This document shows, piece after piece, positions 5,942-64,000 of a stretch of DNA of 64,000 nucleotides. Under the pieces are notes generated by a model. That model had not been told where the DNA came from and ran no database searches. It saw only the letters and a list, made by a program, of their open reading frames with translations. Every line of letters starts with the position of its first letter. Position 1 is the stretch's first letter. The stretch is from an uncultured Bacteriovoracaceae bacterium (GTDB lineage Bacteria > Bdellovibrionota > Bacteriovoracia > Bacteriovoracales > Bacteriovoracaceae). Both the position numbers and the translations under genes were made by a program. The DNA lies in the NCBI GenBank assembly GCA_964399165.1, contig CAYNPO010000014.1, forward strand, positions 12,147 through 76,146, given 5' to 3'.

Positions 5942-7204
5942 TTACAGTCTCTCGTCGGAACATTCCCGGGGGAATAGTCCTTTGACGTCATAGACGACGC
6001 TCTTCCCTTTGCACAAGTCTTTGAGAGGGAGTTCCTTGAACTGATTGTGTCCGACCGCCACGATGACGGCGTCGTAGGTGGGGAGGGCGGCGAGTTTCTC
6101 TCGTCCCACCATGCGCAATCCGTACTCGTGCTCCACCTCGGCGGGATCGGCCCAGGGGTCGTACACGTCCACTTCCATGTTGAACTCGCGCAGCTCGGCG
6201 ATGATGTCCACCACGCGGGAGTTGCGGATGTCCGGGCAGTTCTCCTTGAAGGTCAGGCCCAGCACCATGGCCTTGGCGCCGCGGACCTGGTGGCCCTTGC
6301 GGATCAGGTGCTTCACGGTCTGGCGGGCGATGTGGGCGCCCATGCCGTCGTTGATGCGCCGGCCGGAGAGGATCACCTGCGGGTGGTAGCCCAGCATCTC
6401 GGCCTTGTGGGTGAGGTAGTAGGGGTCCACGCCGATGCAGTGGCCGCCCACCAGCCCCGGGCTGAACTTGAGGAAGTTCCACTTGGTGCCTGCGGCTTCC
6501 AGCACTTCCTTGGTGTCGATTCCCATCTGGTTGAAGATGAGGGAGAGCTCGTTCACGAAGGCGATGTTGATGTCGCGCTGGCTGTTCTCGATGACCTTGG
6601 CGGCCTCGGCCACGCGGATGGAGGAGGCCTTGTGGGTGCCGGCGGTGATGATGGAGGCGTAGAGGGCGTCGACCTTGTCCGCGATGGCGGGCGTGGAGCC
6701 GCTGGTGACTTTCTTGATCTTGGTGACGGTGTGCTCTTTGTCGCCCGGGTTGATGCGCTCGGGGCTGTAGCCGCAGAAGAAGTCCACGTTGTACTTGAGC
6801 CCGGAGCACTTCTCCAACACGGGGACGCAATCCTCTTCGGTGCAACCGGGGTAGACGGTGGATTCGTAGATGACGACGTCGCCCTTTTTGAGCACACCGC
6901 CCACGGTGCGGGAGGCGGCGAGGATCGGCGTGAGGTCGGGGCGTTTGGCGGCGTCGATAGGAGTGGGGACGGTGACGATGAAGACGTTGGCGCGTTTGAG
7001 GTCGGCGGTGTCTGAAGAGAAGAGCATTTTGGTGGCGCGCAGGTCATCGGAGGAAACTTCCAGGGTGTGGTCCTTCCCGGCCTTGAGCTCGGCGATCCGC
7101 TCTGCCTTCACGTCGAAACCGATGACGTCGTGTTTTTTGGCGAATTCGACGGCCAAGGGGAGGCCTACGTAGCCTAGGCCCAGGATGGCGATGGTGTCGG
7201 ACAC
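5942..7204 (-). CDS. UDP-N-acetyl-hexosamine 6-dehydrogenase (nucleotide-sugar dehydrogenase, TviB/WbpO/WbpA/CapL type)
   Basis: The track start at 7285 is an over-extension; GTG at 7204 is preceded by AAGGAG with a 5-nt spacer. Rossmann motif ILGLGYVGLPLAVEFAK and catalytic-Cys motif GGHCIGVDPYYL. Confidence 0.9.
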   Translation of the reverse strand: MSDTIAILGLGYVGLPLAVEFAKKHDVIGFDVKAERIAELKAGKDHTLEVSSDDLRATKMLFSSDTADLKRANVFIVTVPTPIDAAKRPDLTPILAASRTVGGVLKKGDVVIYESTVYPGCTEEDCVPVLEKCSGLKYNVDFFCGYSPERINPGDKEHTVTKIKKVTSGSTPAIADKVDALYASIITAGTHKASSIRVAEAAKVIENSQRDINIAFVNELSLIFNQMGIDTKEVLEAAGTKWNFLKFSPGLVGGHCIGVDPYYLTHKAEMLGYHPQVILSGRRINDGMGAHIARQTVKHLIRKGHQVRGAKAMVLGLTFKENCPDIRNSRVVDIIAELREFNMEVDVYDPWADPAEVEHEYGLRMVGREKLAALPTYDAVIVAVGHNQFKELPLKDLCKGKSVVYDVKGLFPRECSDERL

Positions 7205-7332
7205 GGGAACTCCTTGAGAAGAATCCCAGGATACTATATTCCCTCCCAAGAGTGGTCCAGGTAATGTCGTTGTGCAGTATACCAAGACTCTGTCGTGGCG
7301 CGCTCCTTTCCACTCTGATAATCCTTTAGGTC

Positions 7333-8304
7333 ATGAAAACCGTACTACTCACCGGCGTCGCAGGATTCATCGCGTCCAAGACAGGGGAATTCCTCCTGGA
7401 CCAAGGCGTGGAAGTGATCGGCGTCGACAACTTGAACGACTACTACGATCCCCGTCTGAAAGAGCACCGGCTAGAGGGTCTTACCGGCCGCGACGGTTTC
7501 ACCTTTTACAAAATCGACATCGAGAACAAAGCCGCGCTGGCGGGCCTATTCCGGCGTCACAAGTTCGACGCCGTCTTCAACCTGGCGGCCAGGGCGGGCG
7601 TGCGCGCCTCCATGGAAAATCCCCATGTCTACATGACCACCAATGCCATCGGGACATTGAACCTGATGGACTTGATGGTGGAACACAGAGTGAAGAAACT
7701 CGTGCTGGCATCCACGTCCTCGCTCTATGCCGGCCAGCCCATGCCTTTCCTCGAGACGCTGCCGGTGAACACACCGATCTCTCCCTACGCGGCCTCTAAG
7801 AAAGCCGCCGAGGTCATGGCGTACTCTTACCACTACCTCTATGGGTTGGATGTGTCCGTGGTGCGCTACTTCACAGTGTACGGTCCTGCCGGTCGGCCCG
7901 ACATGAGCATTTACCGCTTCATCCAATGGATCGATGACGGAACTCCCTTGGAACTCTTTGGAGACGGGCAACAAGCTCGCGACTTCACTTTTGTGGACGA
8001 CATCGCCCGTGGAACCATTGCGGCTGGCCGCCAAGTCGGTTACGAGGTGATCAACCTGGGCGGCGGCAACAATCCCGTGAGTCTCCTCACTGTGATCGGC
8101 ATGGCGGAGAAATTTCTGGGCAAGAAGGCCACCTTCGCGCGCAAGGAATTCCACAAGGCGGACATCAAAGAAACCTGGGCGGACATCTCCAAGGCTGGGC
8201 ACCTGCTGGGGTGGAAGCCGGCTGTTCCTCTCGAAGAGGGAATCCGCCAGTGCTGCGAGTGGTACCTCGCTAACAAGCACCGCGGGTTCAAGATTCCCAG
8301 ATGA
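7333..8304 (+). CDS. NAD-dependent nucleotide-sugar (uronate) 4-epimerase, SDR family (TviC/WbpP/Cap1J-like)
   Basis: LLTGVAGFIASK (GxxGxxG), YAASKKAAE (YxxxK) and DYYDPRLKEHRL are typical of UDP-GlcA/GlcNAcA 4-epimerases. Divergent from the dehydrogenase. Confidence 0.85.
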   Translation: MKTVLLTGVAGFIASKTGEFLLDQGVEVIGVDNLNDYYDPRLKEHRLEGLTGRDGFTFYKIDIENKAALAGLFRRHKFDAVFNLAARAGVRASMENPHVYMTTNAIGTLNLMDLMVEHRVKKLVLASTSSLYAGQPMPFLETLPVNTPISPYAASKKAAEVMAYSYHYLYGLDVSVVRYFTVYGPAGRPDMSIYRFIQWIDDGTPLELFGDGQQARDFTFVDDIARGTIAAGRQVGYEVINLGGGNNPVSLLTVIGMAEKFLGKKATFARKEFHKADIKETWADISKAGHLLGWKPAVPLEEGIRQCCEWYLANKHRGFKIPR

Positions 8305-9347
8305 GCGCACGGCGCTCGTGGGCCCTTTTCATCGTCCTACTGATCTCAGCTTCCTCTTGCCGGTTCTCAAACCACATTTCTGATACCACCCCCCGGATGG
8401 AAGCGAGGCTTGCCACATCGCGCCCGTCATTGGAGCCCATTCGCTTTCGGTCAGCATCCGATGCGATCGTGGCGCGGAAACGTCTGTGGGAGGTGGTATT
8501 TGGAAGCAAGCACGCGCCGACACTTGAGATGGCCGAGGTGCCTGCCGACTGTCCCACTTGGGCGCCATCCTGCTCTGCCGCTGTCCGCCTGCATGGGGTG
8601 ATGGACGGTTTTCTTGAGACTAACGTGATTATGTATCGTCCTCAGGTTCAACGTTATCCTACGTTGTCTCTGCTATATCACCATGGCCATGGTGGCGATC
8701 ACAGCGATGGTCGCGCAGTCATTCAAAGTTTTCTCAAGCGGGGGGTGAGGGTTTACGAGTTTCACATGCCCCTGCATGGTGCGAATCCACCGGCTTTCTA
8801 TTCTTCCCCGTCGCTAGGCGCTTTCCGGATCACCAGCCATGATCAGTTAGTGGACTTGGTGCAACCGTCGCAAGGACATCCTTTGCGCTACTTCCTCCTG
8901 CCAGTCGTGGCCCTGGTAGATGTCCTGCAGGCCCAAGGACAGACCGTTGTTATGACAGGAATTAGCGGGGGAGGGTGGACCACAACGTTGGCGGCTGCCC
9001 TACATCCGGGTATTCGCCGCAGCGTCTCCATTGCCGGCTCGATCCCCTTCCCTGGCAGGATGTCCAAGCGCAACTGGGGGGACGCGGAACAGCACGACGG
9101 CAGGATATATAACGTGGTGAACTACCGGGAACTTTACCTGTTGGCGGCTTTGGATGCAGGACGCTTCCACGCGCAGCACTTCAATGAGAAGGATCCTTGC
9201 TGCTTCCGAGGGGAAAAAGACCTGGTCTTTTTCGACGACACTCTCAAGCGACAACGAGCCTTAGGAGCAGGGGTGTTGGCCTTCAGGCAGTTTCCCTTGG
9301 ATCGTCATGGAGCTGATCCCGATACGATCAGGGGTCTGTTGGATTGA
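8301..9347 (+). CDS. Alpha/beta-hydrolase-fold lipoprotein (putative esterase)
   Basis: ATGA overlap with the upstream gene. Signal plus lipobox-like LLISASSC. HHGHGGD oxyanion-type motif and nucleophile elbow GISGGG. Confidence 0.6.
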   Translation: MSARRSWALFIVLLISASSCRFSNHISDTTPRMEARLATSRPSLEPIRFRSASDAIVARKRLWEVVFGSKHAPTLEMAEVPADCPTWAPSCSAAVRLHGVMDGFLETNVIMYRPQVQRYPTLSLLYHHGHGGDHSDGRAVIQSFLKRGVRVYEFHMPLHGANPPAFYSSPSLGAFRITSHDQLVDLVQPSQGHPLRYFLLPVVALVDVLQAQGQTVVMTGISGGGWTTTLAAALHPGIRRSVSIAGSIPFPGRMSKRNWGDAEQHDGRIYNVVNYRELYLLAALDAGRFHAQHFNEKDPCCFRGEKDLVFFDDTLKRQRALGAGVLAFRQFPLDRHGADPDTIRGLLD

Positions 9348-9417
9348 GCGGCGCTGAACAGCCTTTGTAAGCCAAAACTCCTTCGGGACTGGACCTTCAC
9401 TATATCCTAACCATAAA

Positions 9418-9630: not shown

Positions 9631-10986
9631 ATGCAGCGCGAGCCTGCTTCATTCCGGGATCCCTCCGGGTATGTTTTCCGAGATGGTGGCTTCGTCAAGC
9701 GTTGGGTCGCTCCAGGCTACGTCCCGTCCTACGACCGGCTCATGCAGTCGGGGCTTTACGCCGAACTCACCGCTAAAGGCTGGTTACTGGCCCACGATGA
9801 GGAGCCTTCCACCGGAGCGCACCGGGTGCTGCGACCTCAACAGTTAGGGTTCGTGTCGTATCCCCATGAGTGGTCCTTCAGCATGCTGAAGGATGCCTGC
9901 CTCCTTACCTTGGAAATCCAGAAACTCGCGCTCAAGCATGACATGGTCCTGAAGGACGCTTCCGCCTATAATGTGCAATTCCACCTCGGAAAGCCGGTCT
10001 TCATCGACACACTTTCCTTTGAACCCTACACAGTCGGGTCGCCCTGGGTGGCTTACAAGCAGTTCTGCCAGCACTTCCTTGCGCCGCTGGCCCTCATGGC
10101 TTTCACCGACATCCGCTTGTCGCAGCTCCTGCGAACCCATATCGACGGGATACCACTGGATCTAGCTTCCAAGCTCTTGCCCTGGCGGTCCTGGTTCCGG
10201 CCAGGCTTGCTCATGCACGTGCATCTGCATGCGCGCATGCAAAGTAAATACGCCGGCGCCGGAACGAAACCGGCGGTACCGCGTAAGATGCCGTTGCAAT
10301 CACTCTTGGGCGTGATCGACTCCCTCGAGGGTACGGTCAAGGGCCTGCAAATGCCCGGGCAACGGACCGAATGGGAGGACTACTACAAAAACCACAACTA
10401 TAGTGAGGCGGGATTCAAGGAGAAGGGCGCGCTCGTGCGTTCCTTCGTCACCAGCACGGGCGCGAAGAAAGTCTGGGATTTCGGTGGTAACCGCGGAGAC
10501 TTCTCCCGCATTGCCGGGGAAACGGGTGCGGATGTGGTGTGCTGGGACATCGATCCGAACGCCGTTGAGACCAACTACAGGCGCGTGCGAGGGCTGGGCG
10601 AAACCAACCTCCTCCCGCTGGTACTGGACCTGACCAACCCCTCCTCACCCATGGGGTGGGGGGAGAACGAGCGCCAAGGCTTGTTGGGTCGCAAGGGCCC
10701 GGACGCCTTAATGGCGCTGGCGCTGATCCACCACCTCGTGATCAGCAATAACGTGCCCTTTTCCATGGTGTCCTCCTATTTCCGTGCCTTGGCCCCCTGG
10801 CTCGTTATCGAGTTCGTCCCGAAAGGCGACTCCCAGGTGAACATCCTGCTTGCCACCCGCCAAGACGTGTTTGGGGATTACGACGAAGCTGGCTTCGAGA
10901 AAGGCTTCGCCTCCGATTGGGAAATCGTCGACAAAAAGCCGGTTGCTGGTAGCACGCGTACGCTTTACCTACTCAAGGGTCGCTGA
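9631..10986 (+). CDS. Class I SAM-dependent methyltransferase with a large N-terminal FRDPSG domain (NoeA-like)
   Basis: N-terminus ASFRDPSGYVF. C-terminal SAM motif VWDFGGNRGDFS and LIHHLVISNNVP. 451 aa. Confidence 0.7.
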   Translation: MQREPASFRDPSGYVFRDGGFVKRWVAPGYVPSYDRLMQSGLYAELTAKGWLLAHDEEPSTGAHRVLRPQQLGFVSYPHEWSFSMLKDACLLTLEIQKLALKHDMVLKDASAYNVQFHLGKPVFIDTLSFEPYTVGSPWVAYKQFCQHFLAPLALMAFTDIRLSQLLRTHIDGIPLDLASKLLPWRSWFRPGLLMHVHLHARMQSKYAGAGTKPAVPRKMPLQSLLGVIDSLEGTVKGLQMPGQRTEWEDYYKNHNYSEAGFKEKGALVRSFVTSTGAKKVWDFGGNRGDFSRIAGETGADVVCWDIDPNAVETNYRRVRGLGETNLLPLVLDLTNPSSPMGWGENERQGLLGRKGPDALMALALIHHLVISNNVPFSMVSSYFRALAPWLVIEFVPKGDSQVNILLATRQDVFGDYDEAGFEKGFASDWEIVDKKPVAGSTRTLYLLKGR

Positions 10987-10989
10987 GCC

Positions 10990-12030
10990 GTGCGCCGTTG
11001 GGGATGGGTGGTCATCAGCTGGTGGGGGGGCGCCACCGCCGCTGTCCACGTGGGGAAAGACATTCCGGCGAAGGGCCTGGCCCACAGGATCCACCAGAAC
11101 CAGGTTTACGTCTCGGGCTCGTTGGTCGAGGCCGATTTCAGGGGAGCCACATTGAGGGGAGTGACTTTCGCGCAAGTTAATCTCAAGGGAGCCAACTTCA
11201 CTGGTGCTGTGTTCGAAGGTGTACGTTTTCTCTCCTGCGACCTAGGGGGTGCGAGTTTCCAGCGTGTCCGTGGCGAAGCCGAAATCATCCGGTCCTCCAT
11301 CTCTAAGATTTCCTTCCATGGCGCGGGCATGCGCCGGCTTCTCGTGCGCGATTCCCACGGGGTGGAACCGGATTTCGCCGGGGCGGTTTTGGGATATCTT
11401 CGCTGGGAAGGGGGGAGCACCCTTGCCCCGCTGTTCCAAAGCGCACGCATCGATCGTCTGGAACTCGAGCGCGTCAGCATGAAAGACTCCCAATGGAAGG
11501 GAGTGCAGGTGGGGACGTTGGCCCTGCGCCAAGCGGTTTGCGTGGAAGACCACGGGGGGACGCCCCGGGCCACCCTTTGCAGGGGCTCCCTCGGGCCCCA
11601 GCTCCTCACCGACGTCGTTTTGATGGACTACCCCCGTCTCACCACCGCTTGTCTCAAAACCTATCCGGTGGTGAAGCCGACCTCCCCGATGAACGGCCCC
11701 ACGACTTTGTTCGATGGGCGCGAGGGACCAGGAATATTCCGACCTTGCCTCAAGGAGTACCCGCTCAAACTGGATTTCACCCTCCGCGACTGGCCGAAGG
11801 AACTCCTTCCACGGCTAGATTTGCACGCAGCTCACAATGGGCCACGGGGTGCCGTAACATTGCGGGGCAAGTGGGGGGAAGAGTGGCGCGCGATCACCCC
11901 TCAGTCGGAAAGGGAAAACGCTACGTCATGGGCCTTATCCACCCTTCCGCCGTCGCCGGCTACCCTGAACTTCGCTTTCCCTGATGAAGCCACCGGTATC
12001 ACGGAACTAAAGATCGGAGTACGCCGGTGA
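10990..12030 (+). CDS. Pentapeptide-repeat protein with N-terminal hydrophobic anchor and unknown C-terminal domain
   Basis: GTG start 3 nt after the upstream stop. Repeats ADFRGATLRGVTFAQVNLKGANFTGAVFEGVRFLSCDLGGASFQ. Confidence 0.6.
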   Translation: MRRWGWVVISWWGGATAAVHVGKDIPAKGLAHRIHQNQVYVSGSLVEADFRGATLRGVTFAQVNLKGANFTGAVFEGVRFLSCDLGGASFQRVRGEAEIIRSSISKISFHGAGMRRLLVRDSHGVEPDFAGAVLGYLRWEGGSTLAPLFQSARIDRLELERVSMKDSQWKGVQVGTLALRQAVCVEDHGGTPRATLCRGSLGPQLLTDVVLMDYPRLTTACLKTYPVVKPTSPMNGPTTLFDGREGPGIFRPCLKEYPLKLDFTLRDWPKELLPRLDLHAAHNGPRGAVTLRGKWGEEWRAITPQSERENATSWALSTLPPSPATLNFAFPDEATGITELKIGVRR

Positions 12031-13487
12031 AGGTCGGTTGGCAAGCGAGCGTCGGCGTGTTCTCGCTGGCGGTTTTGGCGCTGGGATACCCTGTGGTGGA
12101 CCTTGTCCGTCAAAACCCCGTCTTGCGCGAGTACTATGGCATGACCGGCACCATGTTCTGGAGCATGGTGGGAATCGTCACGTTGGGTCCTGCGCTCATG
12201 CATTTGGTAGCTTTCCGCGCCGGTTCTGGCACGTGGCGGATATGGACGGTGGTGTGGCTGGAACTCCTTGCGGTGACGCTGCTGCTCCAGGCGACGACCA
12301 CCATGGGGACGCTGGGAAGGGCAGTGGCGGTGGCGGTAAGCGGGTTCTGGGCGTTTTTCTTCGTTCGCGGCGACGGGAAAATGCTAGCAAACCTCCTATG
12401 GACGCTGGCCCTGCTCTCTCCCGTGTTAGCGGGAGATCTTATCTATAAGGCCCATCGCGTCCAGCGCCGGAACACGGTAGACATGCCCGCCCCCGGACGG
12501 CTCGTACCGCGGCAGTCCCCGCCACTGGTGGTGGGTATCATGCTGGATGGGAGCGAATTGACTTCCTCCTTTCTGGATGAAGAAGGCTGGCCCAGGGAAG
12601 AGTTGCTCCCCAACTTGCGACGCATTCTCCGTCAGGACTTCCACTGGTTTCCGCGGTCCGTTTCCGTGTCTCCTGCCACTTACTCGACGCTTCCCTCCTT
12701 TCTGACCGGTGAACCGGTGTATAAAAAGGCCAATCGCCGCGCCAATGCAGGCTGGGACATGTTTTCTCTGGTGGCAAGGGAATGGCCCATTCGTGGTTTC
12801 TTCTATAAGCATTACTACCGGGGATTTTGTCAGACGCACGTAGACTCGTGCGCGCTGACCAAGGAGGCTGAAGAAACCTCACCCTATACCGCTGTGGCGG
12901 CCCTGCTTTGGTCTCGTATCAAGGGGGAGCGGCCGGGGATCGATCCCGCGTTCGTTCCACGCCAGGAGCACTTCTCTTTTGACATTTTCCTCAATTCCGT
13001 TGCTCGCGCCCGACCGGGGGAGTTTCACTACATCCACATTTTCCGCCGCAACTTTCTCCTTTTGAAGGAGTTCGACGAGCAGTTCGCCCGGCTCGAACGG
13101 ACCCTCGAGCGCGCCGGATTGTACGAAGACGCCGTGGTTTTCTTGGTGTCCGACCATGGCCTGGACCATACTTCGCCCACCTTCCCTTACGGACATCAGG
13201 CCGATCCGGGGCCGCGGGTCTACCGCATTCCCTTGGCAGTTAAGCCGCGTGGGCGGGGTAAGGGTGAGGTTTCGACCTTTCCGGCCCAGCAGACTGATTT
13301 GTTCCCCACGATTTTGGGCCTCTACTTCGACCAGGCAAGCGTCCAAAAGCTGGGTGTGGTTGGAGTGGATCTCCTGCGGCTGGAGACCTTCCCCGCAAGA
13401 CGGAAATACCACTTCAATTGCAACGGCAAGGAAGGACGATTAGTGGTTTCAGAGAACCCCGAGGCTTACCGACAATGCCGCCGTTGA
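12027..13487 (+). CDS. Membrane-anchored sulfatase/alkaline-phosphatase-superfamily transferase (phosphoethanolamine/phosphoglycerol-transferase-like)
   Basis: GTGA overlap with the upstream gene. About 4-5 N-terminal TM segments. SPATYSTLPSFLTG (candidate Thr/Ser nucleophile region) and VVFLVSDHGLDH metal-ligand motif. Confidence 0.6.
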   Translation: MKVGWQASVGVFSLAVLALGYPVVDLVRQNPVLREYYGMTGTMFWSMVGIVTLGPALMHLVAFRAGSGTWRIWTVVWLELLAVTLLLQATTTMGTLGRAVAVAVSGFWAFFFVRGDGKMLANLLWTLALLSPVLAGDLIYKAHRVQRRNTVDMPAPGRLVPRQSPPLVVGIMLDGSELTSSFLDEEGWPREELLPNLRRILRQDFHWFPRSVSVSPATYSTLPSFLTGEPVYKKANRRANAGWDMFSLVAREWPIRGFFYKHYYRGFCQTHVDSCALTKEAEETSPYTAVAALLWSRIKGERPGIDPAFVPRQEHFSFDIFLNSVARARPGEFHYIHIFRRNFLLLKEFDEQFARLERTLERAGLYEDAVVFLVSDHGLDHTSPTFPYGHQADPGPRVYRIPLAVKPRGRGKGEVSTFPAQQTDLFPTILGLYFDQASVQKLGVVGVDLLRLETFPARRKYHFNCNGKEGRLVVSENPEAYRQCRR

Positions 13488-30558: not shown

Positions 30559-30576
30559 GTTAAAGAGGAGACTGTC

Positions 30577-31743: not shown

Positions 31744-31749
31744 TGGCGC

Positions 31750-57459: not shown

Positions 57460-58485
57460 ATGCCGCATCTGCTAAAGGATAAAACCCTGCTCATTACAGG
57501 GGGCACCGGGTCTTTCGGCCGGGCCTTTACTAGTCACTGCCTGGAAAAATTTCCCGGTCTGAAAAAACTCATCGTCTACTCCCGTGACGAACTCAAGCAG
57601 TACGAAATGATGAACGAACCACAGTTCATCCCGTACGCCGAAAAGCTGCGTTTCTTTATCGGCGATGTGCGGGACGCTGAGCGCCTGCGCCGGGCCTGCG
57701 AGGGTGTTGATTACGTGGTCCATGCCGCCGCCATGAAGCAGGTCCCGGTGGCTGAATACAACCCCATGGAGTGCATCCACACCAACATCATGGGAGCGCA
57801 GAATCTTATCAACGCTGCCCTAGACCAATCCGTTAAGAAAGTGGTGGCCCTCTCCACAGACAAAGCCGCCGCGCCGATCAACCTGTATGGCGCCACCAAG
57901 CTGTGCTCGGACAAGCTCTTCATCGCCGCCAACAACATCCGCGGCTTCCGTGACCTCTCTTTCTCCGTAGTCCGATACGGAAACGTCATGGGCTCCCGTG
58001 GGTCAGTCATCCCGTTCTTTCTCAAGAAGCGTGGCGAGGGCGTGGTGCCGGTCACTCATCAGGACATGACCCGTTTTAACATCACTCTCGAGGAAGGCGT
58101 GCAGCTGGTGCTGCGGGCCCTGGGCGAGGCGATTGGCGGGGAGATTTACGTCCCCAAGATCCCTTCCTACCGTATCCTCGACATGGTCAAGGCCCTGGCC
58201 CCGCGAGCCGAAGTGCGCATGGTGGGCATCCGCCCCGGCGAGAAAATCCACGAAGAGATGATCACCGAGAGCGACGCGCTCAACACCCTCGACTGCGGAT
58301 CGCACTACGTGATCCTGCCCGCCAGCCTCCAGCACGCGGAGGAAGAGTTTGTTCGCCACCACCGCGGCCGCAAGGTCCCACAGGGTTTCCGTTACAATTC
58401 CGGCACCAACGAGAGCTGGCTTACCGTGGACCAAATCCGCCAGCTCGTCCGCCAGCATCTGGATCCGGCTTTCGACCCGGGCTGA
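57460..58485 (+). CDS. pseB: UDP-N-acetylglucosamine 4,6-dehydratase (inverting) PseB
   Basis: GAGGAA SD upstream. LITGGTGSFG, VHAAAMKQVPVAEYNPMECIHTNI, YGATKLCSDK and VRYGNVMGSRGSVIP. Confidence 0.9.
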   Translation: MPHLLKDKTLLITGGTGSFGRAFTSHCLEKFPGLKKLIVYSRDELKQYEMMNEPQFIPYAEKLRFFIGDVRDAERLRRACEGVDYVVHAAAMKQVPVAEYNPMECIHTNIMGAQNLINAALDQSVKKVVALSTDKAAAPINLYGATKLCSDKLFIAANNIRGFRDLSFSVVRYGNVMGSRGSVIPFFLKKRGEGVVPVTHQDMTRFNITLEEGVQLVLRALGEAIGGEIYVPKIPSYRILDMVKALAPRAEVRMVGIRPGEKIHEEMITESDALNTLDCGSHYVILPASLQHAEEEFVRHHRGRKVPQGFRYNSGTNESWLTVDQIRQLVRQHLDPAFDPG

Positions 58486-58489: not shown

Positions 58490-59635
58490 ATGAAACCTCT
58501 GCATTACGGACGTCAGGACATCAACGACGACGACCTCGCCGCCGTGACTGAGGTTTTGAAGGGTGATTTCCTTACCCAAGGTCCGTGGGTTAAACGCTTT
58601 GAGGATGCTTTCGCGGCTTTCGTGAAAGCCCCTTACGCACTAGCGGTGGGCACCGGAACTGCGGCTTTGCAGCTGTCAGTGGCAGCGCTGGGGATCCGCC
58701 CAGGGCAGAAGGTGATTGTGACCCCGCTGACCTTTTGCGCTTCCGCCAACTCTGTTCGCTACGCGGATGGGGAAGTGGTGTTTTGCGACATCGATCCCTC
58801 CACTGGCAACCTGGACCCCCGCGCTGTGGGAGAGCTGTTGTCCCAGGCGCAATCCGGGGAGTACGCCGGTATTATCACGGTGGATTTCGCGGGTATGCCT
58901 TCCGCCTTACCAGAACTCCGCGCCCTGGCGGATGCACACGGGTTATGGCTCTTGGAAGACGCTTGCCACGCGCCTGGAGGCTTCACGGCCGATGGAGAAC
59001 CCTGCGGTTCCGGCAAGTATGCCGATGCCGCCGTGTTCAGCTTTCACCCGGTGAAGCACCTGACCACCGGCGAGGGCGGCATGGTTACCACCGCTCGCCC
59101 TGACATCGCCGAGCGCATCTCCGTGCTACGCACCCACGGCATCGTGCGCGACTCTGCGAAGTTCAAACGTAGACCTGATGGGCCCTGGTACCATGAGATG
59201 CAGGAGCTGGGGTGGAATCACCGCCTTCCCGACACCGCCTGCGCCCTGGGATTGTCTCAGCTCAAGCGGCTCGGGGCCTTTCTGGAGCGCCGACGCTGGA
59301 TCGCCGCCCGCTATGACGAGGCCTTCAGGGACGCTTCCTCGCTGCCATTCACGCCGGGCGCCCACGCCAAGGGCCACGCCCACCACTTGTACGTTGTGCT
59401 CAATGATCGTCGGGACGAGCTGATGGAACACCTGAAGAAAGAGGGTATCCACCCCCAGGTTCACTACATCCCGACCCACCTGATGCCTTACTACCTCGAG
59501 CGCTACGCGGGGGCATACGAAGGGCGCCTACCCCAAGCCGAGGCGTACTACCGGCGCTGCCTCAGCCTTCCCATGTACCCTGCCATGACCGACGCGGATG
59601 TGGACCGCGTGATCAGATCCGTGCGTTCGTTCTGA
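58490..59635 (+). CDS. pseC: UDP-4-amino-4,6-dideoxy-N-acetyl-beta-L-altrosamine transaminase PseC
   Basis: ATG at 58490, 4 nt after the pseB stop (the track start at 58349 is an over-extension). LHYGRQDINDDD, FLTQGPWVKRFE and SFHPVKHLTTGEGG. Confidence 0.9.
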   Translation: MKPLHYGRQDINDDDLAAVTEVLKGDFLTQGPWVKRFEDAFAAFVKAPYALAVGTGTAALQLSVAALGIRPGQKVIVTPLTFCASANSVRYADGEVVFCDIDPSTGNLDPRAVGELLSQAQSGEYAGIITVDFAGMPSALPELRALADAHGLWLLEDACHAPGGFTADGEPCGSGKYADAAVFSFHPVKHLTTGEGGMVTTARPDIAERISVLRTHGIVRDSAKFKRRPDGPWYHEMQELGWNHRLPDTACALGLSQLKRLGAFLERRRWIAARYDEAFRDASSLPFTPGAHAKGHAHHLYVVLNDRRDELMEHLKKEGIHPQVHYIPTHLMPYYLERYAGAYEGRLPQAEAYYRRCLSLPMYPAMTDADVDRVIRSVRSF

Positions 59636-59641: not shown

Positions 59642-60283
59642 TCAGCCTTTGTGGATCTTCAGCACATACTTGCGGCCGTGCAGATGGAAGAATGCTGGGT
59701 ATCGTTCGTTGTCGCACACTCTGAGCAAGTTGAATTGCTCTGCGATAGACTTGTGCGGGTCGAGTTCGCTGTCGGCGGGCCCGCGACGCGGGTAGCGGGA
59801 TTCCGCTCCCTCCTGAGGCTTAGCTAGCGCCGCGGGGTAAGCATCAAAAAAGCTCCCCATCAGCCGGACTGTGGCCGCTGCGATCGCCTCGCGGATCTCC
59901 TCCACCAATTCATGTCCTTCAAATGCTAATTCGTCCCGTAGGTAAACCGGGCCCGAATCGAGACCTTCCGCTGCCTCAAAAAGAGTGAGGGGGATGAGAT
60001 TTTTTCCCTCAAGAATCTGCCATGTGGCGGGGGACATGCCCTTGCCCTGCGGGAGGGCGCTGGCGTGGACTACCAGGTTATGCCGGTGGCGGGCCAGGAA
60101 AGCGGCATCCACCACCCGCTCATAACTCAGGAGCAGGCACACGTCGGCGGCACCGGTTTCGGCGCGGTGGTCGTGCCCCAGGCGAGTAAGGGCGTCGGGA
60201 AAACGGCGCTTGATCTCCTCTTCAAGCGTCGGCACGTATTTGATGAACCAACTTTTCTCGTCGACCAGGATCAAGCATTGCAT
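59642..60283 (-). CDS. Short formyltransferase-fold protein (N-terminal domain only; divergent active site)
   Basis: NLVVHASALPQGKG and GLDSGPV. 213 aa. The Asn of the N-x-H motif is absent. Confidence 0.65.
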   Translation of the reverse strand: MQCLILVDEKSWFIKYVPTLEEEIKRRFPDALTRLGHDHRAETGAADVCLLLSYERVVDAAFLARHRHNLVVHASALPQGKGMSPATWQILEGKNLIPLTLFEAAEGLDSGPVYLRDELAFEGHELVEEIREAIAAATVRLMGSFFDAYPAALAKPQEGAESRYPRRGPADSELDPHKSIAEQFNLLRVCDNERYPAFFHLHGRKYVLKIHKG

Positions 60284-61416
60284 GTCAGAAGCCTATGGTA
60301 GATGTCCCGCAAGACGGGTTCTTGTTTTTCCCATGTGAAGCCAGCCCCCAACTCTCGGGCAGTGGCCTTCCGCGCCTCCAGACCGTGACGCACTTCCCGC
60401 AGCGCCGCCAGCAGCGCTTCGGGGGTTTCGTGCTCGATCACCACGCCTGCTCCCGTGCCTGCCAGTCTCACGCGCAGTTCGTACAGGTCGGTGCTCACCA
60501 CCGGCAATCCCGCCTGGAGGTACTCGAAGAATTTATTAGGCAGGCAAAATAAGTGGTTGCGACAGGAGGTGTCGGTCAGGCAGATGCCCACGTCCGCGGC
60601 GCAGGCGTGGCGGAATACGTCTGATGGAGGGACCGCGGGGTGAGCGTGAAGGTGCGGGTACCGGGCGGCGGCGGCTTCCACCAAAGGCGCAAGGGGGCCG
60701 TAACCCATAACCACAACATGGCCTTCATCCGGGGGAAGGAGTGCGAAAGCCTCGAGGATGAGTTCGATGCCGCGGCCAGCGACCAGTCCCCCTTGGTAAA
60801 GGTATACCGGAACGTGGTCTGGGATGCCGTACATCTGGTGGAAGAGCCGCGAAGGCACCGGAGTTTGTGCCGGCGGGCAGTTGAGCACCAGTTCGGGTTG
60901 TACGCCGTAGAGGTGCCGGTAATTGGCGGCGATGGAGGGACTCACCGTTACGACCGCGTCGGCACAATGGATGAGCAGGCGCTCAAGGACCTTGGTGATG
61001 GTCTTTTTCAGTCCATGCAGGCTTTTAGTTTCCGTCTCGAATTCATGAGCGTCGTACACCACTTTCACACCGCGCGCCGCTTTTGCCAGGAATCCCGCGA
61101 TTAACGGATCAAGATCGTGGCAATGCACGACTCTCGCGCCTTCCCGCTGGATTTCGCGTTGACAGCGCCAGGCCCAGACCAGGATGCCCAAGAAACCGGT
61201 GGCCTTGTTCCGCGCCCATGAGGGCGGGCGTGGCAAGCGGAGCCTTCGGAGTTGGACGCCTTCCCCCAAACACTCCTGCTCCGGCAGCCCGGCACCCGCA
61301 GTGGCCAGGACCAGTTGGGGACTGATGCCGATGGCACTCAAGGTCGCCACTTCCTTCAACACTCGTGAGTCGTTGGTGAATGTGTTGTGGACCACGTGGC
61401 AAACCACAGCACTCAT
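60271..61416 (-). CDS. Glycosyltransferase family 4 (GT-B)
   Basis: ATG at 61416 forms an ATGA overlap (the track start at 61467 is an over-extension). HNTFTNDSRVLKE N-terminus and NKFFEYLQAGLPVVSTD. Confidence 0.8.
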   Translation of the reverse strand: MSAVVCHVVHNTFTNDSRVLKEVATLSAIGISPQLVLATAGAGLPEQECLGEGVQLRRLRLPRPPSWARNKATGFLGILVWAWRCQREIQREGARVVHCHDLDPLIAGFLAKAARGVKVVYDAHEFETETKSLHGLKKTITKVLERLLIHCADAVVTVSPSIAANYRHLYGVQPELVLNCPPAQTPVPSRLFHQMYGIPDHVPVYLYQGGLVAGRGIELILEAFALLPPDEGHVVVMGYGPLAPLVEAAAARYPHLHAHPAVPPSDVFRHACAADVGICLTDTSCRNHLFCLPNKFFEYLQAGLPVVSTDLYELRVRLAGTGAGVVIEHETPEALLAALREVRHGLEARKATARELGAGFTWEKQEPVLRDIYHRLLTCNA

Positions 61417-62516
61417 TGGGATACCTCGCGCAGGAAATCGAATGTCTTGCGGGCGACTCCTTCCCATGACAGGTGGGTGATGGCATGGGCACGTACAGTT
61501 TCCGGGGGAACCGTCCCCGAGAGCGCCTCTCGCACCGTCTTGGCCAAAGCCGAGGGAGCAGAGCTTTCCGCCCGAAAGGCGAAACCGCTGCCTTCTATCT
61601 CAGGGGCTTCCCGCGTGACGTGCACCAGCGGTTTGCCCATGGCCATATAATGCCGAACTTTCAACGAACGGCCTTCAGCCAGGCCCGCTCGGTCAAAAGC
61701 GAGGGGAGCCACGCCAACATCACAGGCCCACACCACTTCACTCACTTCCTCGTGGGAAAGCCAGGGAAGCACGTGCACCCGCGGGCCTTGGACCGCGGCA
61801 GCCGCTTCAGGTGTGTCGGCTCCAATCAACACCAAATCAACGTTTTCGGGGAAGGATGGTAGCGCGGCCAGAAGACGGTCATGGCCGTGCCACGGGCGGG
61901 TAAAACCCGCCATCACTAAAAGTATTCTTTCCATCGGTAGCCGCCATTTCGCGCGTATTTGTGCAACCGAGGAGGAGGGGACGGGGGGAATTTCAATTCC
62001 GTTCCCTGCTACCAGAGTGGGGATGTGGTTACCTCCCCGTGCAGCCGCGTCTCGGGTAATTTCTGGTGTCACAGGGAGGAGGGCGGAGGCGTGGCGGAGG
62101 GAGAAGGTTTCGCATGCGGGGTAGAGCAGGGCTTTGAAGTTCTTCCCCTGGCTTCTCAACTCCGAGGCCCACAGCGTGTTGATCTCGTAGGCGTAGCGCA
62201 GCCCCAGCTTGCGTAAGGGACGGGTGAACAACGGGTAGTCCAAGGGAAAGGGGCGGGTGTAAACCCAATCGGGGCGAGGGGAGTGGCGAAGGTGCTCCAG
62301 CGCCGCCCGGGCAAAACCTGCCACGCGGGACATGGCGCTGCCAGTCAACGGGAAAGCAGTCACGTTCAGCCCCACCGGCGCTCGACCCACGTCTCCCAGG
62401 CACAACAAACGCGCTTCCACTCCATTGGCTGCAGCGTGGCGGCACAACCCCAACACATGCTGGAGCGCTCCCCCCGTGTCGCCGAGATCCAGGGGGACCG
62501 CGTAGGTGATTTTCAT
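61413..62516 (-). CDS. Glycosyltransferase family 4-like (GT-B)
   Basis: Start chosen at the ATG giving MKITYAVPLDLGDTGG (62516); the track start at 62738 crosses the divergent intergenic region. GT-B C-terminal KVRHYMAMGKPLV. Confidence 0.65.
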   Translation of the reverse strand: MKITYAVPLDLGDTGGALQHVLGLCRHAAANGVEARLLCLGDVGRAPVGLNVTAFPLTGSAMSRVAGFARAALEHLRHSPRPDWVYTRPFPLDYPLFTRPLRKLGLRYAYEINTLWASELRSQGKNFKALLYPACETFSLRHASALLPVTPEITRDAAARGGNHIPTLVAGNGIEIPPVPSSSVAQIRAKWRLPMERILLVMAGFTRPWHGHDRLLAALPSFPENVDLVLIGADTPEAAAAVQGPRVHVLPWLSHEEVSEVVWACDVGVAPLAFDRAGLAEGRSLKVRHYMAMGKPLVHVTREAPEIEGSGFAFRAESSAPSALAKTVREALSGTVPPETVRAHAITHLSWEGVARKTFDFLREVSQ

Positions 62517-62522
62517 GGCGCC

Positions 62523-62528
62523 AGGATA
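62523..62528 (-). promoter_or_regulatory. -10-like hexamer TATCCT, 6 nt upstream of the ATG at 62516
   Basis: Reverse strand reads ggTATCCTggcgccATG with no SD. Confidence 0.25.
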
Positions 62529-62586
62529 CCGTCTCGCCTGAGGCTTTAAAAGAGACATTCCCGTTCCTTCTCCGGTGTCTCCTGGG

Positions 62587-62592
62587 TAAGAT
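62587..62592 (+). promoter_or_regulatory. -10-like hexamer TAAGAT, 6 nt upstream of the ATG at 62599
   Basis: ggTAAGATgacccgATG with no SD. Confidence 0.3.
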
Positions 62593-62598
62593 GACCCG

Positions 62599-63594
62599 AT
62601 GCACGCAGCCCCCGTTCCGCCTCCTGTCCTGATGGTCATTCCCGGTCGCGAGGAAGGGAGCGGGTTCATCTTTTCCAAGCGGGAGTTTCGGACGATTTCC
62701 GCCAAGCGTGAAGGATGCCACGTGTACTTTCTCGACACCTCCCTGCGGCCGGGGAATTTGCTGCGGCAGTTTCTGGTTTTGCGCTCCCTAGTCCGCCAGG
62801 TGCGGCCAGCCCTGCTTCACGCCCAGTATGGGTCCATCACTGCTTTCCTCTGCTCGCTGGTCAAGGGCCAGGCCCGCCTTTTGGTAACGTACCGGGGCAG
62901 CGACCTCAATTGGAATCCCGGAGTGAGTTGGCTGCGTAACCTGGGAGCTAAAACACTTTCCTACCTGGCTTTCATGTCCGCCGATCATGCGATTATGGTT
63001 TCGCCCCGTCTAGGTCACCCCTTGTTGCGGGGCCAAGGGAAAACCACCGTGATCCCCACGGGCGTCGACATGAACGTGTTCCGCGAGATGCCGGTGGAGG
63101 ATTGCCGCCGTCGCCTGGGATGGCAGGGGCCCGGTCCTCACCTGCTGCTCAACGTGGGCAAGGACCCGGTGAACAAGCGGCTCGACCTCGCTGAAGCCGC
63201 TCACGCCTTGCTGGTGGCACAGGGTTTGCCCGCAGAGCTCCACGTGATGCGCGGACAAGTGGACCCTGCCGACGTACCGGTTTGGATGAACGCCAGTGAT
63301 GTGGTTCTCATGCTCTCAGACAAGGAGGGCTCGCCCACCGTGGTCCAGGAAGCGCTTGCTTGCGGTGTCCCCGTGGTGTCGGTGGCCGTGGGCGATACGC
63401 CCGAACGTCTTGATGGCGTTGAATCCGCGCGTCTGGTGGAACGCACGCCCGCGGCGGTGGCGCAGGCGGTGAAGGAGTTGGTGGCCGTGCCCAGACAGGT
63501 TTCTCCGAGGGTGCGGGCAGAACTTGGCCTTGAGTCCATCGGGGAGCGTATCCTCGGCTTGTATGACCGCCTCATTCGCGGGGCCGTCGCATGA
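62599..63594 (+). CDS. Glycosyltransferase family 4 (GT-B)
   Basis: EGSPTVVQEALACGVPVVS (EX7E region). TAAGAT lies 6 nt upstream of the ATG and there is no SD. Confidence 0.75.
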   Translation: MHAAPVPPPVLMVIPGREEGSGFIFSKREFRTISAKREGCHVYFLDTSLRPGNLLRQFLVLRSLVRQVRPALLHAQYGSITAFLCSLVKGQARLLVTYRGSDLNWNPGVSWLRNLGAKTLSYLAFMSADHAIMVSPRLGHPLLRGQGKTTVIPTGVDMNVFREMPVEDCRRRLGWQGPGPHLLLNVGKDPVNKRLDLAEAAHALLVAQGLPAELHVMRGQVDPADVPVWMNASDVVLMLSDKEGSPTVVQEALACGVPVVSVAVGDTPERLDGVESARLVERTPAAVAQAVKELVAVPRQVSPRVRAELGLESIGERILGLYDRLIRGAVA

Positions 63595-64000
63595 CGGTGC
63601 TGGTGACCGGGGGGGCGGGTTACATCGGCTCCCATGTCCTGTTGGCCTTGGCGGCCCATGGGGAGAAAGTGGTGGTGCTGGATGACTTGAGCACCGGCAG
63701 ACGGGAAGCTGTCTCCCACGGAGAATTGGTAGTGGGAGACGTGGGAGACCGCGCTCTTTTGGATAAGCTCTTCTCTTCGCATTCCATCGAGTCGGTGATG
63801 CATTTTGCCGGCTCCATCGTCCCGTCCGAATCCTTACGCCGCCCCTTGGATTATTACCAGAACAACACCGCCGCCGCGTTGACCCTCATGAGGGCATGTG
63901 TGGCCCATGGCGTGCGTCGCTTTGTTTTTTCCTCCAGCGCAGCGGTCTACGCCGAGCCTCCCACAGGCGTGTGCGCGGAGGACTCGCCTCTCGCGCCGCC
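63591..64000 (+). CDS. galE: UDP-glucose 4-epimerase GalE, N-terminal part (runs off the right edge)
   Basis: Not in the ORF track (no stop inside the window). ATGA overlap with the upstream stop. MTVLVTGGAGYIGSHVLLAL...VMHFAGSIVPSES...FVFSSSAAVY. Confidence 0.8.
   Translation, partial: MTVLVTGGAGYIGSHVLLALAAHGEKVVVLDDLSTGRREAVSHGELVVGDVGDRALLDKLFSSHSIESVMHFAGSIVPSESLRRPLDYYQNNTAAALTLMRACVAHGVRRFVFSSSAAVYAEPPTGVCAEDSPLAP

Follow-up and report, generated by a model that had tools for sequence, protein, structure and literature searches.

Very large polysaccharide loci have been described in bacteria (the rfb loci of Leptospira are roughly 100 kb), and loci with the genes for both pseudaminic acid (Pse) and legionaminic acid (Leg), two sialic-acid-like nonulosonic acids (NulOs), are also known. 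The surface glycans of predatory Bdellovibrio-like bacteria, to our knowledge, are almost unstudied. Here, we analyzed a 64,000-nucleotide stretch of DNA (the window) from an uncultured Bacteriovoracaceae bacterium (assembly GCA_964399165.1, contig CAYNPO010000014.1, positions 12,147 to 76,146), which carries glycan genes from its position 5,942 to its right edge. We propose, with a probability of about 0.6, that these genes belong to an undecaprenyl-phosphate (Und-P)-linked surface-polysaccharide region with three acidic amino-sugar donors, which most likely makes more than one glycan of the O-antigen or capsule type.

Several described systems resemble parts of this locus. In Campylobacter jejuni, Leg and Pse genes co-occur in the flagellin glycosylation locus (PMC13130089, PMC9298399). 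Like that locus, the present one combines Pse genes and guanosine diphosphate (GDP)-route Leg genes in one large locus, with a putative PtmE-type nucleotidyltransferase and with extra tailoring genes between legC and neuB. However, no Maf or flagellin genes were found in the region; it has an Und-P initiating transferase, family 4 glycosyltransferases (GT4), Wzx-like proteins, a Wzy_C protein and an ATP-binding cassette (ABC) exporter instead. Furthermore, formyltransferases replace LegH and PseH here, whereas Campylobacter uses acetamidino chemistry. The Legionella pneumophila serogroup 6/12 O-antigen locus encodes PseG, a glutamate-1-semialdehyde (GSA)-aminomutase-like class-III aminotransferase, an acylneuraminate cytidylyltransferase, an aryl-alcohol-dehydrogenase-like reductase, a DegT aminotransferase and CapD (PMC3694923). 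The same accessory trio as our g16-g18 thus stands there in a lipopolysaccharide (LPS) locus. The Legionella clusters, on the other hand, export through Wzm/Wzt, rely on HisH/HisF for amidino chemistry and are roughly half as large, with neither a second NulO pathway nor Wbp genes. In Candidatus Kuenenia stuttgartiensis, a cluster of the order legB-legF-legC-deacetylase-formyltransferase-neuB-legF-legG has been described, and formylated, de-N-acetylated and O-methylated cytidine monophosphate (CMP)-NulOs were detected (bioRxiv 10.64898/2026.04.20.719630).

Each module of the present locus has a published or metagenomic counterpart. A first-pass annotation of the window, made from the sequence alone, had implied that the locus lacks precedent; counterparts were found for the leg cluster with a formyltransferase, for PseJ, for the trio of the g16-g18 type and for the g47-g49 cassette. 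We regard the locus as a further example of the known diversity of polysaccharide clusters, not as a new principle. New are the exact combination, the host lineage, the predicted paired formyl-NulO design and the uncharacterized GT-B candidates described below.

Extent of the glycan region

Between 5,942 and 64,000, the gene set derived from the list of open reading frames (ORFs) contains 54 ORFs in at least 14 co-directional blocks. The ORFs cover 98.7% of the bases, and their junctions are mostly overlaps or gaps of <25 nt. All ORFs were annotated with NCBIfam and the rest with Pfam, and the precomputed Pfam matches of independent gene calls on the same DNA were used as a cross-check. These calls shorten g14, g15, g19, g21, g22, g40, g45-g48, g50, g51, g54, g56 and g57, as the longest-ORF starts are too early for several genes. 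The first-pass annotation had described an uninterrupted 58-kb run in which nearly every coding sequence is glycan related. Both statements hold: no mobile element or RNA gene lies inside the run, and about 46 of the 54 ORFs belong to families of sugar-nucleotide synthesis, tailoring, transfer or export. The eight ORFs without a demonstrable link to glycans are g8, g9, g10, g28, g29, g31, g36 and g37.

The same annotation had followed the locus to the right edge at 64,000, where it does not end. Two Logan contigs, from an independent assembly of run SRR15237806, are 100% identical to the window, and one of them extends to the equivalent of 85,323. We read this extension to window-equivalent 83,456, at least 19 kb past the window, and glycan genes continue at least to that position. 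The glycan region is at least 77.5 kb long with about 70 genes, and the window holds its left three-quarters.

Donor pathways

Three donor pathways (WbpA/B/D/E, GDP-route Leg and Pse) had been assigned to the locus by the first-pass annotation, and all three are supported: the Leg and Pse pathways by NCBIfam equivalog passes, the Wbp pathway by the best matches to solved structures. The genes of the Leg pathway and its surroundings are as follows (in all lists, model scores are in bits, and the number after > or < is the cut-off).

g35, 37991-38704, + strand: WbmS-like polysaccharide deacetylase-fold protein (PF22537 151.4 bits)
g38, 41847-42827, + strand: LegB, nucleotide-N-acetylglucosamine (NDP-GlcNAc) 4,6-dehydratase (TIGR04180 479.9 > 475)
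g39, 42820-43962, + strand: LegC aminotransferase (TIGR04181 486.4 > 420)
g40, 43959-44843, + strand: formyltransferase in the LegH slot (Formyl_trans_N and Formyl_trans_C; top PDB match, ArnA formyltransferase domain, 119 bits)
g41, 44840-45844, + strand: NeuB-type synthase, LegI by context (TIGR03569 471.4 > 399.7)
g42, 45847-46995, + strand: hydrolysing 2-epimerase NeuC/LegG (TIGR03568 349 > 235.9)
g43, 46988-48046, + strand: PtmE-like protein with CBS and NTP_transferase domains (best NCBIfam, mannose-1-phosphate guanylyltransferase, 137 bits < 440)
g44, 48123-48866, + strand: PhyH-family Fe/2-oxoglutarate (2OG) dioxygenase (PF05721 106.6 bits)
g45, 48863-49651, - strand: S-adenosylmethionine (SAM) methyltransferase (Methyltransf_11 31 bits)
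g46, 49648-50355, - strand: CTP_transf_3 (PF02348) CMP-NulO synthetase, LegF by position (PseF model 94.3 bits < 205.7)

TIGR03568 and TIGR03569 do not separate Neu from Leg, and the Leg assignment comes from the LegB/LegC context. In the literature, a PtmE-type gene among leg genes is accepted as marking the GDP route (PMC5378307). CMP-legionaminic acid would be made by this route through g43, g38, g39, g42, g41 and g46.

The Pse genes lie to the right of the leg genes, and a module of three accessory genes, g16-g18, lies far to the left.

g16, 17233-18573, - strand: class-III (GSA-aminomutase-like) aminotransferase, accessory of NulO clusters (NF004856 527.2 > 486)
g17, 18566-19294, - strand: CTP_transf_3 (PF02348) cytidylyltransferase, candidate CMP-Pse synthetase, below the PseF cut-off
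g18, 19291-20127, - strand: aldo/keto reductase (PF00248; KidO model 117.9 bits < 244)
g51, 55265-56236, - strand: PseG, UDP-sugar hydrolase (TIGR03590 230.4 > 153.6)
g52, 56333-57376, + strand: PseI, pseudaminic acid synthase (TIGR03586 494.5 > 340.3)
g53, 57460-58485, + strand: PseB, inverting 4,6-dehydratase (TIGR03589 572.8 > 407.8)
g54, 58490-59635, + strand: PseC aminotransferase (the best stretch of TIGR03588 spans the whole model within g54; the total, 741.5 > 423.5, was scored on a two-protein concatenate, not on g54 alone)
g55, 59642-60283, - strand: short (213 aa) formyltransferase-fold protein in the place of PseH (Formyl_trans_N; PseJ 6ci2 28 bits)

CMP-pseudaminic acid would be made by g53, g54, g51 and g52, with g17 or g46 as the synthetase; these two are the only CTP_transf_3 genes in the region, and both score under the PseF cut-off. 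In another contig (L087, positions 367-2421), a 684-aa fusion protein consists of a CTP_transf_3 cytidylyltransferase and a class-III aminotransferase, with 45% identity to g17 and 35% identity to g16, respectively. The fusion gene adjoins PseG/PseI-like genes, and the contig also has a second NeuB, a g48-like gene and an ABC exporter. Since their homologues are fused (a Rosetta-stone case), g16 and g17 are likely to be functionally linked.

The third pathway is that of the 2,3-diacetamido-hexuronates.

g6, 5942-7285, - strand: TviB/WbpA-type uridine diphosphate (UDP)-GlcNAc 6-dehydrogenase (NF011729 TviB 574.8 bits, cut-off 592; TIGR03026 399.6 > 189.8)
g19, 20127-21209, - strand: WbpE-type UDP-2-acetamido-2-deoxy-3-oxo-glucuronate aminotransferase (top PDB match WbpE 3nyu, 450.8 bits, full length)
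g20, 21272-22234, + strand: WbpB/WlbA-type dehydrogenase of position 3 of UDP-N-acetylglucosaminuronate (UDP-GlcNAcA) (top PDB 3o9z 348 bits, 3oa2 313 bits, full length)
g21, 22240-22809, + strand: WbpD/WlbB-type 3-N-acetyltransferase (top PDB 3mqg, 270.8 bits, full length)

The alignment of g6 begins at residue 31, and its true start is probably about 90 nt inside the ORF. The WbpE, WbpB and WbpD types are mutually adjacent (g19-g21). The WbpI-type epimerase gene lies outside the window at the equivalent of 65,670-66,734; against the Thermus UDP-GlcNAc3NAcA 2-epimerase (8sxv), its product reaches 399 bits, compared with at most 268 bits for UDP-GlcNAc 2-epimerases. We suggest that WbpA/B/E/D (g6, g20, g19 and g21) would make UDP-2,3-diacetamido-2,3-dideoxy-hexuronate, which WbpI would convert to the manno form. 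Candidates for all five enzyme types are present, as in the wbp genes of Pseudomonas aeruginosa O5 and the wlb genes of Bordetella, which make the manno-configured sugar UDP-ManNAc3NAcA. Theirs form one short operon, however, whereas here g6 is at 6 kb, g19-g21 are at 20-23 kb and WbpI is at 66 kb, a span of 60 kb in which NulO genes and many others lie between them.

Directly before the WbpI gene is a gene for a PF06662 glucuronyl C5-epimerase-like protein (the two occupy equivalent positions 64,562-66,734; contig L084, 11964-14136). As a speculation, this protein could turn the manno form of the uronate into the L-gulo form. Together with three AsnB-like amidotransferases of the region, it suggests further editing of the uronates.

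Formyltransferases in place of acetyltransferases

Apart from the WbpD-like g21, the sole acetyltransferase found in 77 kb, the family scans of 5.9-83.4 kb found no NeuD/PglD-type or GNAT acetyltransferase that could serve as LegH, and no GNAT N-acetyltransferase for PseH was found in the region. In the corresponding places, the two-domain formyltransferase gene g40 directly follows legC, and the single-domain g55 stands beside pseC; the Asn..His..Asp catalytic pattern of g55 was read in HNLVVHASALPQGKG...GLDSG. In the established pathway chemistry, N7 of the NulO comes from the 4-amino group of the hexose intermediate. Because N7 has this origin and the formyltransferases stand in the acetylation slot, we infer that g40 and g55 take over the N-acetylation step of the 4-amino-hexoses, giving the 5-acetamido-7-formamido forms Leg5Ac7Fo and Pse5Ac7Fo. 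Both NulOs of this locus, in other words, are probably 7-N-formylated instead of acetylated.

There are precedents for this design besides Kuenenia. The N-formyltransferase PseJ supplies Pse5Ac7Fo (PMC11040635), and in Halorubrum a formyltransferase is encoded in the leg cluster and N-formyl-Leg is found on the S-layer glycan (PMC6137143). Like PseJ (6ci2/6ci4), g55 is short and single-domain (213 aa versus 192-217 aa) and is encoded in a Pse cluster without PseH. However, its similarity to PseJ is marginal (28 bits), other formyltransferases score equal or better, and g55 is at best a functional analogue of PseJ, with orthology not demonstrated. The leg cluster shares with that of Kuenenia a formyltransferase between legC and neuB, as well as a deacetylase-fold protein and methyltransferases close by. 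It differs in that the deacetylase-fold gene g35 is 3 kb upstream with two membrane-protein genes between, and in that a short formyltransferase of its own accompanies a second pathway, that of Pse. The formylated CMP-NulOs detected in Kuenenia are predictions here.

Further editing of the NulOs by the WbmS-like g35, by methyltransferases (g45) and by oxygenases (g44) around the leg operon is plausible from the gene content. The g35 family also adjoins a formyltransferase in another contig (L088). The first-pass annotation had predicted unusually N-acylated and methylated NulOs. The absence of LegH and PseH from the region, the formyltransferases in their slots and the position of g35, g44 and g45 on the flanks of the Leg genes agree with this prediction. 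It was too broad in one respect, as most of the tailoring enzymes are not assignable to NulOs and several lie in the separate modules g23-g27 and g30-g35. As parts, the leg and pse operons with formyltransferases for acetyltransferases would be useful for the enzymatic synthesis of formylated CMP-NulOs, and the two candidate NulO glycosyltransferases g48 and g49 could be added to this list.

Candidate NulO transferases

Very few NulO glycosyltransferases are known to us: Maf, KpsS1 and candidates in Tannerella. Between the Leg and Pse genes, the locus carries a cassette with two glycosyltransferase candidates.

g47, 50532-51254, + strand: small, weakly 2OG-oxygenase-like protein (2OG-FeII_Oxy_3, E 0.011), conserved partner of g48
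g48, 51257-52792, + strand: GT-B glycosyltransferase, distant relative of Capsule_synth (KpsC/KpsS) (PF05159 25.2 > 20)
g49, 52789-54159, + strand: second GT-B-like protein, with an HP motif and no Pfam match
g50, 54192-55268, + strand: radical SAM/SPASM enzyme (PF04055 and PF13186)

PF05159 is also matched by 10 of 12 relatives of g48. A profile of the g48 family matches KpsC (8fuw) at E 1.4e-8 and WbbB weakly, and the AlphaFold (AF2) model of g48, with a predicted local distance difference test (pLDDT) score of 85, has a GT-B fold. In the family, the QPE and HP motifs are invariant; H350 is invariant and K348/E349 are near-invariant (read as KEHP). KpsS1 (GT118) is a proven Pse transferase of the Capsule_synth superfamily, which also holds retaining transferases of 3-deoxy-D-manno-oct-2-ulosonic acid (Kdo) (PMC12887879). 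Like the retaining CMP-ulosonate transferases KpsC/KpsS (GT107), WbbB (GT99) and KpsS1 (GT118), g48 passes the Capsule_synth threshold and has a GT-B model and a His-Pro motif. It differs from them in being about 510 aa long with a Capsule_synth match limited to about 90 residues. The homologues of g48 sit in NulO loci: metagenomic loci of at least 12 kb with such a homologue numbered 35, of which 30 (86%) have a NeuB-family gene and 23 have a CMP-synthetase within 10 kb.

For g49, the AF2 model has a low confidence (pLDDT 66), and Foldseek matched this model to GT-B glycosyltransferases and epimerases; an R-L-H-P motif is invariant in its family. We infer that g48 and, less surely (g49 being a weak case), g49 would take Pse and/or Leg from CMP donors and attach them to a sugar acceptor. 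Foldseek with the g48 and g49 models gave generic GT-B matches only, mostly UDP-GlcNAc 2-epimerases with low TM-scores; the fold was confirmed and the donor was not. Homology between g48 and g49 is not claimed, as BLASTP gave nothing and hhalign gave a weak match (E 0.028, probability 1.7%).

The cassettes of the locus recur in other uncultured or environmental bacteria. An 18.8-kb contig contains g47-like and g48-like genes, PseB, PseC, a cytidylyltransferase, a g49-like gene, a radical SAM enzyme, three GT4s and an epimerase. In contig L088, a formyltransferase, a WbmS-like gene and two NeuB genes occur with g47-like (44% identical), g48-like (37%), PseB (74%), PseC (58%) and g49-like (30%) genes; the g47 homologue is directly upstream of the g48 homologue, and the g49 homologue follows PseB, PseC and a cytidylyltransferase. 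The pairing of a radical SAM enzyme with a g49-like gene is seen in the P0002 locus. Word-indexed searches gave 13 and 3 matches for g48 and g49, as if both were extremely rare. For g48 only, this was rejected by a full profile search, which returned 10,399 representatives of 50%-identity clusters; 3,440 of these reach E<=1e-30. No characterized member was found in the g48 family, whose proteins are about 500 aa long and which is a good target for the discovery of NulO transferases.

Assembly and export genes

The following genes for glycan assembly and export lie in the window.

g22, 22853-24526, + strand: ABC exporter with fused transmembrane and nucleotide-binding domains (MsbA/PglK architecture; ABC_membrane and ABC_tran; CydC/CydD, MsbA and PglK models below cut-off)
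g56, 60271-61416, - strand: GT4 glycosyltransferase (Glyco_transf_4/Glycos_transf_1)
g57, 61413-62558, - strand: GT4 glycosyltransferase (Glyco_transf_4/Glycos_transf_1)
g58, 62599-63594, + strand: GT4 glycosyltransferase (Glyco_transf_4/Glycos_transf_1)
g59, 63591-64000, + strand: GalE, UDP-hexose 4-epimerase, cut by the window edge, with the full gene reaching 64,565 (full-length gene in L084, TIGR01179 388.1 > 262.3)

Past 64,000, GalE is followed by the C5-epimerase-like protein, WbpI, a 1233-aa multi-GT4 protein, a WecA/MraY-family initiating transferase and a methyltransferase, and then by a weak Wzx-like protein, a GT4, two AsnB-like proteins, a Polysacc_synt flippase, a Wzy_C protein, a PemK toxin pair, PPK2 and two GT4s. 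The initiating transferase (PF00953, equivalent 70,447-71,511) reaches 171 bits with the WecA model, whose cut-off is 326. The Polysacc_synt protein adjoins the Wzy_C protein at 78.2-80.8 kb, and for the other Wzx-like protein the WzxE model gives 47 bits. The Wzy_C domain does not distinguish Wzy, WaaL and PglL.

With these genes, the WecA-family transferase would start a chain on Und-P and the GT4 enzymes would extend it, with g48 and g49 as the best candidates for adding NulOs from CMP donors. The Wzx-type flippases and/or the ABC exporter g22 would carry the product across the membrane, and the Wzy_C protein would polymerize or ligate it. The first-pass annotation had considered the acceptor unreadable from the window. 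The WecA-family transferase, the Wzx-like proteins and the Wzy_C protein beyond its edge, with no Maf or flagellin gene found in 77 kb, narrow the choice.

At about 80.8-82.1 kb equivalent (contig L086, 1341-2631), the genes of a PemK-family toxin, its 80-aa partner and a PPK2 polyphosphate kinase separate the Wzy_C gene from the GT4 genes that follow. They may mark a seam between two sub-loci.

One surface glycan or several

It was implied by the first-pass annotation that the whole region makes a single complex glycoconjugate, with ManNAc3NAcA-type uronates and Leg and Pse derivatives and with all the tailoring on it. The continuous packing at 98.7% coding, with neither mobile elements nor housekeeping genes in this part of the window, is in line with one product, and so is the single initiating transferase seen in 77 kb. 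WbpA and WbpI, 60 kb apart at opposite ends, also tie these ends together functionally, and the long protein-linked oligosaccharides of Tannerella pair NulO with ManNAcA-type sugars (PMC5420450 for the NulO part). However, the extended region has three membrane exporters of two kinds, the MsbA/PglK-type ABC exporter g22 and two Wzx-like flippases. Since it has these three exporters and more than 10 glycosyltransferase domains, more than one surface glycan is most likely. The many strand switches between the co-directional blocks, the toxin-antitoxin pair and PPK2 embedded among glycan genes near 81 kb and the uneven GC content (0.54-0.57 for g26-g29) point in the same direction, and the NulO cassette (g47-g49 with Pse genes) stands alone in other contigs. 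We consider a single product less likely than several. A much more specific proposal, that the surface glycan contains Leg5Ac7Fo and Pse5Ac7Fo (possibly de-acetylated, methylated or hydroxylated) with amidated 2,3-diacetamido-uronates, and that g48 and g49 are the first legionaminyl- or pseudaminyl-transferases of new CAZy families, appears improbable as a whole.

Alternatively, the NulO part (about 41.8-63.6 kb) could be an island for flagellin, pilin or general O-glycosylation, of the Campylobacter, Aeromonas or Tannerella kind, beside an O-antigen locus. The co-occurrence of Leg and Pse in the C. jejuni flagellin locus fits such an island. In addition, Bdellovibrio-like bacteria are flagellated, and the Wzy_C protein, which has a weak TfpM match (22 bits), could be a PglL-type O-oligosaccharyltransferase. 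Yet the family scans of 5.9-83.4 kb found no Maf (PF01973), FlmG-like or flagellin gene and no STT3 was seen, and a Maf-type flagellin island was rejected as the main explanation on the missing Maf and flagellin genes. The Pse genes are intermingled with GT4 genes and an Und-P initiating transferase, and for NulO transfer the candidates are GT-B enzymes of the KpsC/KpsS kind, which would act on sugar acceptors. Protein glycosylation is quite improbable in our judgment. Finally, the contig could be a metagenomic chimera that joins the glycan loci of different strains or species. The Logan assembly of the same run does break at 29,881-29,905, inside g27, where the GC content dips. Nevertheless, both Logan contigs match the window at 100% identity and overlap by 25 nt, the g27 ORF continues across the junction, the third-position GC content (GC3) and codon bias are alike on both sides, and the WbpA/B/E/D genes lie on the left while WbpI lies on the right. 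On the identity to independent contigs, the ORF continuity and the pathway split across the junction, a chimera was rejected as extremely improbable.

Several points weigh against the proposed Und-P-linked polysaccharide region with more than one product. Every product is deduced from sequence, and the argument for more than one glycan is one of exporter and glycosyltransferase counts only. The LegF, PseF and PtmE assignments (g46, g17 and g43) are below equivalog cut-offs, and g6 is just under that of TviB. The formyltransferases could act on other amino sugars, or another part of the genome might encode LegH or PseH. Of the 54 ORFs, eight lack an assignable role. The family scans of 5.9-83.4 kb gave no Wzz, no Wza/Wzc and no clear WaaL, and an O-antigen, a capsule and a protein-linked glycan are all candidate products.

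If the proposed donors are made, the two sialic-acid-like sugars and the di-N-acetylated uronates on the surface of this predator could serve in self/non-self discrimination, in the evasion of phages or in contact with prey.

Other tailoring, membrane and unassigned genes

The remaining genes of the locus, and the orphan g5 at its left border, are as follows (SDR, short-chain dehydrogenase/reductase).

g5, 4,906-5,859, - strand (as g6): orphan 317-aa ORF, 82 nt downstream of g6, no family match
g7, 7333-8304, + strand: SDR sugar-nucleotide epimerase/dehydratase (GalE 157 bits, RmlB 151 bits, both below cut-off)
g8, 8301-9347, + strand: alpha/beta-hydrolase-like protein (Abhydrolase_6 E 2.9e-4, under the gathering score; no NCBIfam match)
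g9, 9631-10986, + strand: protein with a weakly methyltransferase-like C-terminal half (Methyltransf_12 E 0.0035)
g10, 10990-12030, + strand: pentapeptide-repeat protein without a glycan link (PF00805 55.8 bits)
g11, 12027-13487, + strand: membrane protein with a sulfatase/phosphotransferase-type domain (PF00884 38.3 bits) and four N-terminal hydrophobic segments; possible phospho-substituent transferase
g12, 13489-14571, - strand: FAD-dependent oxidoreductase of the DAO family (PF01266 224.6 bits; L-2-hydroxyglutarate oxidase model 193 < 299)
g13, 14578-15291, - strand: SAM methyltransferase (Methyltransf_23/25/11/12)
g14, 15288-16589, - strand: FAD/NAD(P)-binding oxidoreductase (NAD_binding_8 46.9 bits)
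g15, 16586-17236, - strand: SAM methyltransferase (Methyltransf_23/31/11/12/25; DVU_1556-family model 74.7 bits < 155)
g23, 24537-25547, + strand: SDR sugar-nucleotide epimerase/dehydratase (best PDB matches, generic NAD-dependent epimerases, up to 153 bits)
g24, 25534-26688, + strand: C4-type (ArnB/perosamine synthase) DegT aminotransferase (ArnB 260 bits, perosamine synthetase 247 bits)
g25, 26685-27665, + strand: SAM methyltransferase (Methyltransf_23/31/11/12/25)
g26, 27669-29531, + strand: AsnB-like glutamine amidotransferase, candidate uronamide former (TIGR01536 447.3 > 267; exopolysaccharide (EPS) amidotransferase TIGR03108 430 < 817)
g27, 29524-30558, + strand: FemAB-like aminoacyl transferase (TIGR03019 74.1 bits < 260)
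g28, 30577-31743, + strand: secreted 388-aa protein with an N-terminal hydrophobic segment, no Pfam or NCBIfam match
g29, 31750-32220, - strand: small secreted protein, weakly YceI-like (PF04264 21.8 bits < 23.7)
g30, 32229-33227, - strand: formyltransferase with N- and C-terminal domains (NF005414 140.5 bits, ArnA 117 bits, both below cut-off)
g31, 33224-34294, - strand: no family match
g32, 34380-35450, + strand: divergent DegT aminotransferase (PF01041; best NCBIfam 107 bits, N-terminal half only)
g33, 35443-36840, + strand: FAD amine-oxidase-like oxidoreductase (NAD_binding_8 47.5 bits, Amino_oxidase 24.9 bits)
g34, 36837-37988, + strand: SAM methyltransferase with an extra C-terminal domain (Methyltransf_23 86 bits)
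g36, 38678-40246, - strand: polytopic membrane protein with a soluble C-terminal domain and at least 8 hydrophobic segments (no Pfam match at E = 1)
g37, 40272-41771, + strand: polytopic membrane protein with at least 6 hydrophobic segments (no Pfam match)

The inventory of tailoring enzymes in the first-pass annotation was reproduced: five DegT aminotransferases (g19, g24, g32, g39 and g54), one class-III aminotransferase (g16), six methyltransferases (g13, g15, g25, g34 and g45 firmly, g9 weakly), three formyltransferase-fold proteins (g30, g40 and g55), three FAD or FAD/NAD oxidoreductases (g12, g14 and g33), two dioxygenase-like proteins (the PhyH protein g44 firmly, the 2OG-oxygenase-like g47 weakly), the radical SAM (SPASM) enzyme g50, the AsnB-like g26, the FemAB-like g27 and the pentapeptide-repeat protein g10. 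By their families, the modules g23-g27 and g30-g35 look like further amino-sugar or uronamide pathways, and g12-g18, g23-g27 and g30-g35 would supply further amino-sugar, uronamide or aminoacyl modifications. Specific roles for g23 and g24 were rejected, as the matches were of the generic SDR and C4-aminotransferase kind only. A Wzy- or GT-C-like role of g36 and g37 is a guess.

There are three AsnB-like amidotransferases in all, g26 and two outside the window (equivalent 74,564-78,205). For each, the nearest model is that of the XrtA/PEP-CTERM exopolysaccharide amidotransferase, with a score below the cut-off. One of them has a FemAB-like gene as its partner, an arrangement shared with PEP-CTERM EPS loci. 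The secreted protein g28, encoded amid glycan genes and adjoining the YceI-like lipoprotein gene, has a CMNCH (CxxCH, haem-c-like) motif near its N terminus.

The window as a whole has about 60% GC. No tRNA, Rfam RNA, insertion sequence element or long repeat was found in its 64 kb, the sole repeats being a conserved motif common to SDR paralogues. Promoter and terminator scans of 4.5-24 kb gave counts not above those of shuffled sequences and thus no operon evidence. At the left end, five ordinary genes (g1-g5) encode 3-deoxy-D-arabino-heptulosonate 7-phosphate (DAHP) synthase, UbiE/MenG, carbonic anhydrase, a SulP transporter and the orphan g5. The DAHP synthase is 88-90% identical to those of three Bacteriovoracia/Bacteriovoracaceae metagenome-assembled genomes (MAGs), and the next best taxa are at about 57%. 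One Bacteriovoracia MAG contig keeps the g1-g4 order (62-89% identity) and has different genes after the SulP gene. Judged by this comparison, the glycan locus is lineage- or strain-specific at this genomic site. No relatives of g5 were found in a scan of 185,579 GTDB species genomes. It may be co-transcribed with g6, which would place the left boundary at about 4.9 kb instead of 5,942.

Across g26-g29 (27,669-32,220), the GC content is 0.54-0.57, compared with a locus mean of 0.60 and 0.636 in the flank. This dip, together with the break of the Logan assembly, suggests a strain-variable or recently acquired AsnB/FemAB cassette, not a misjoin.

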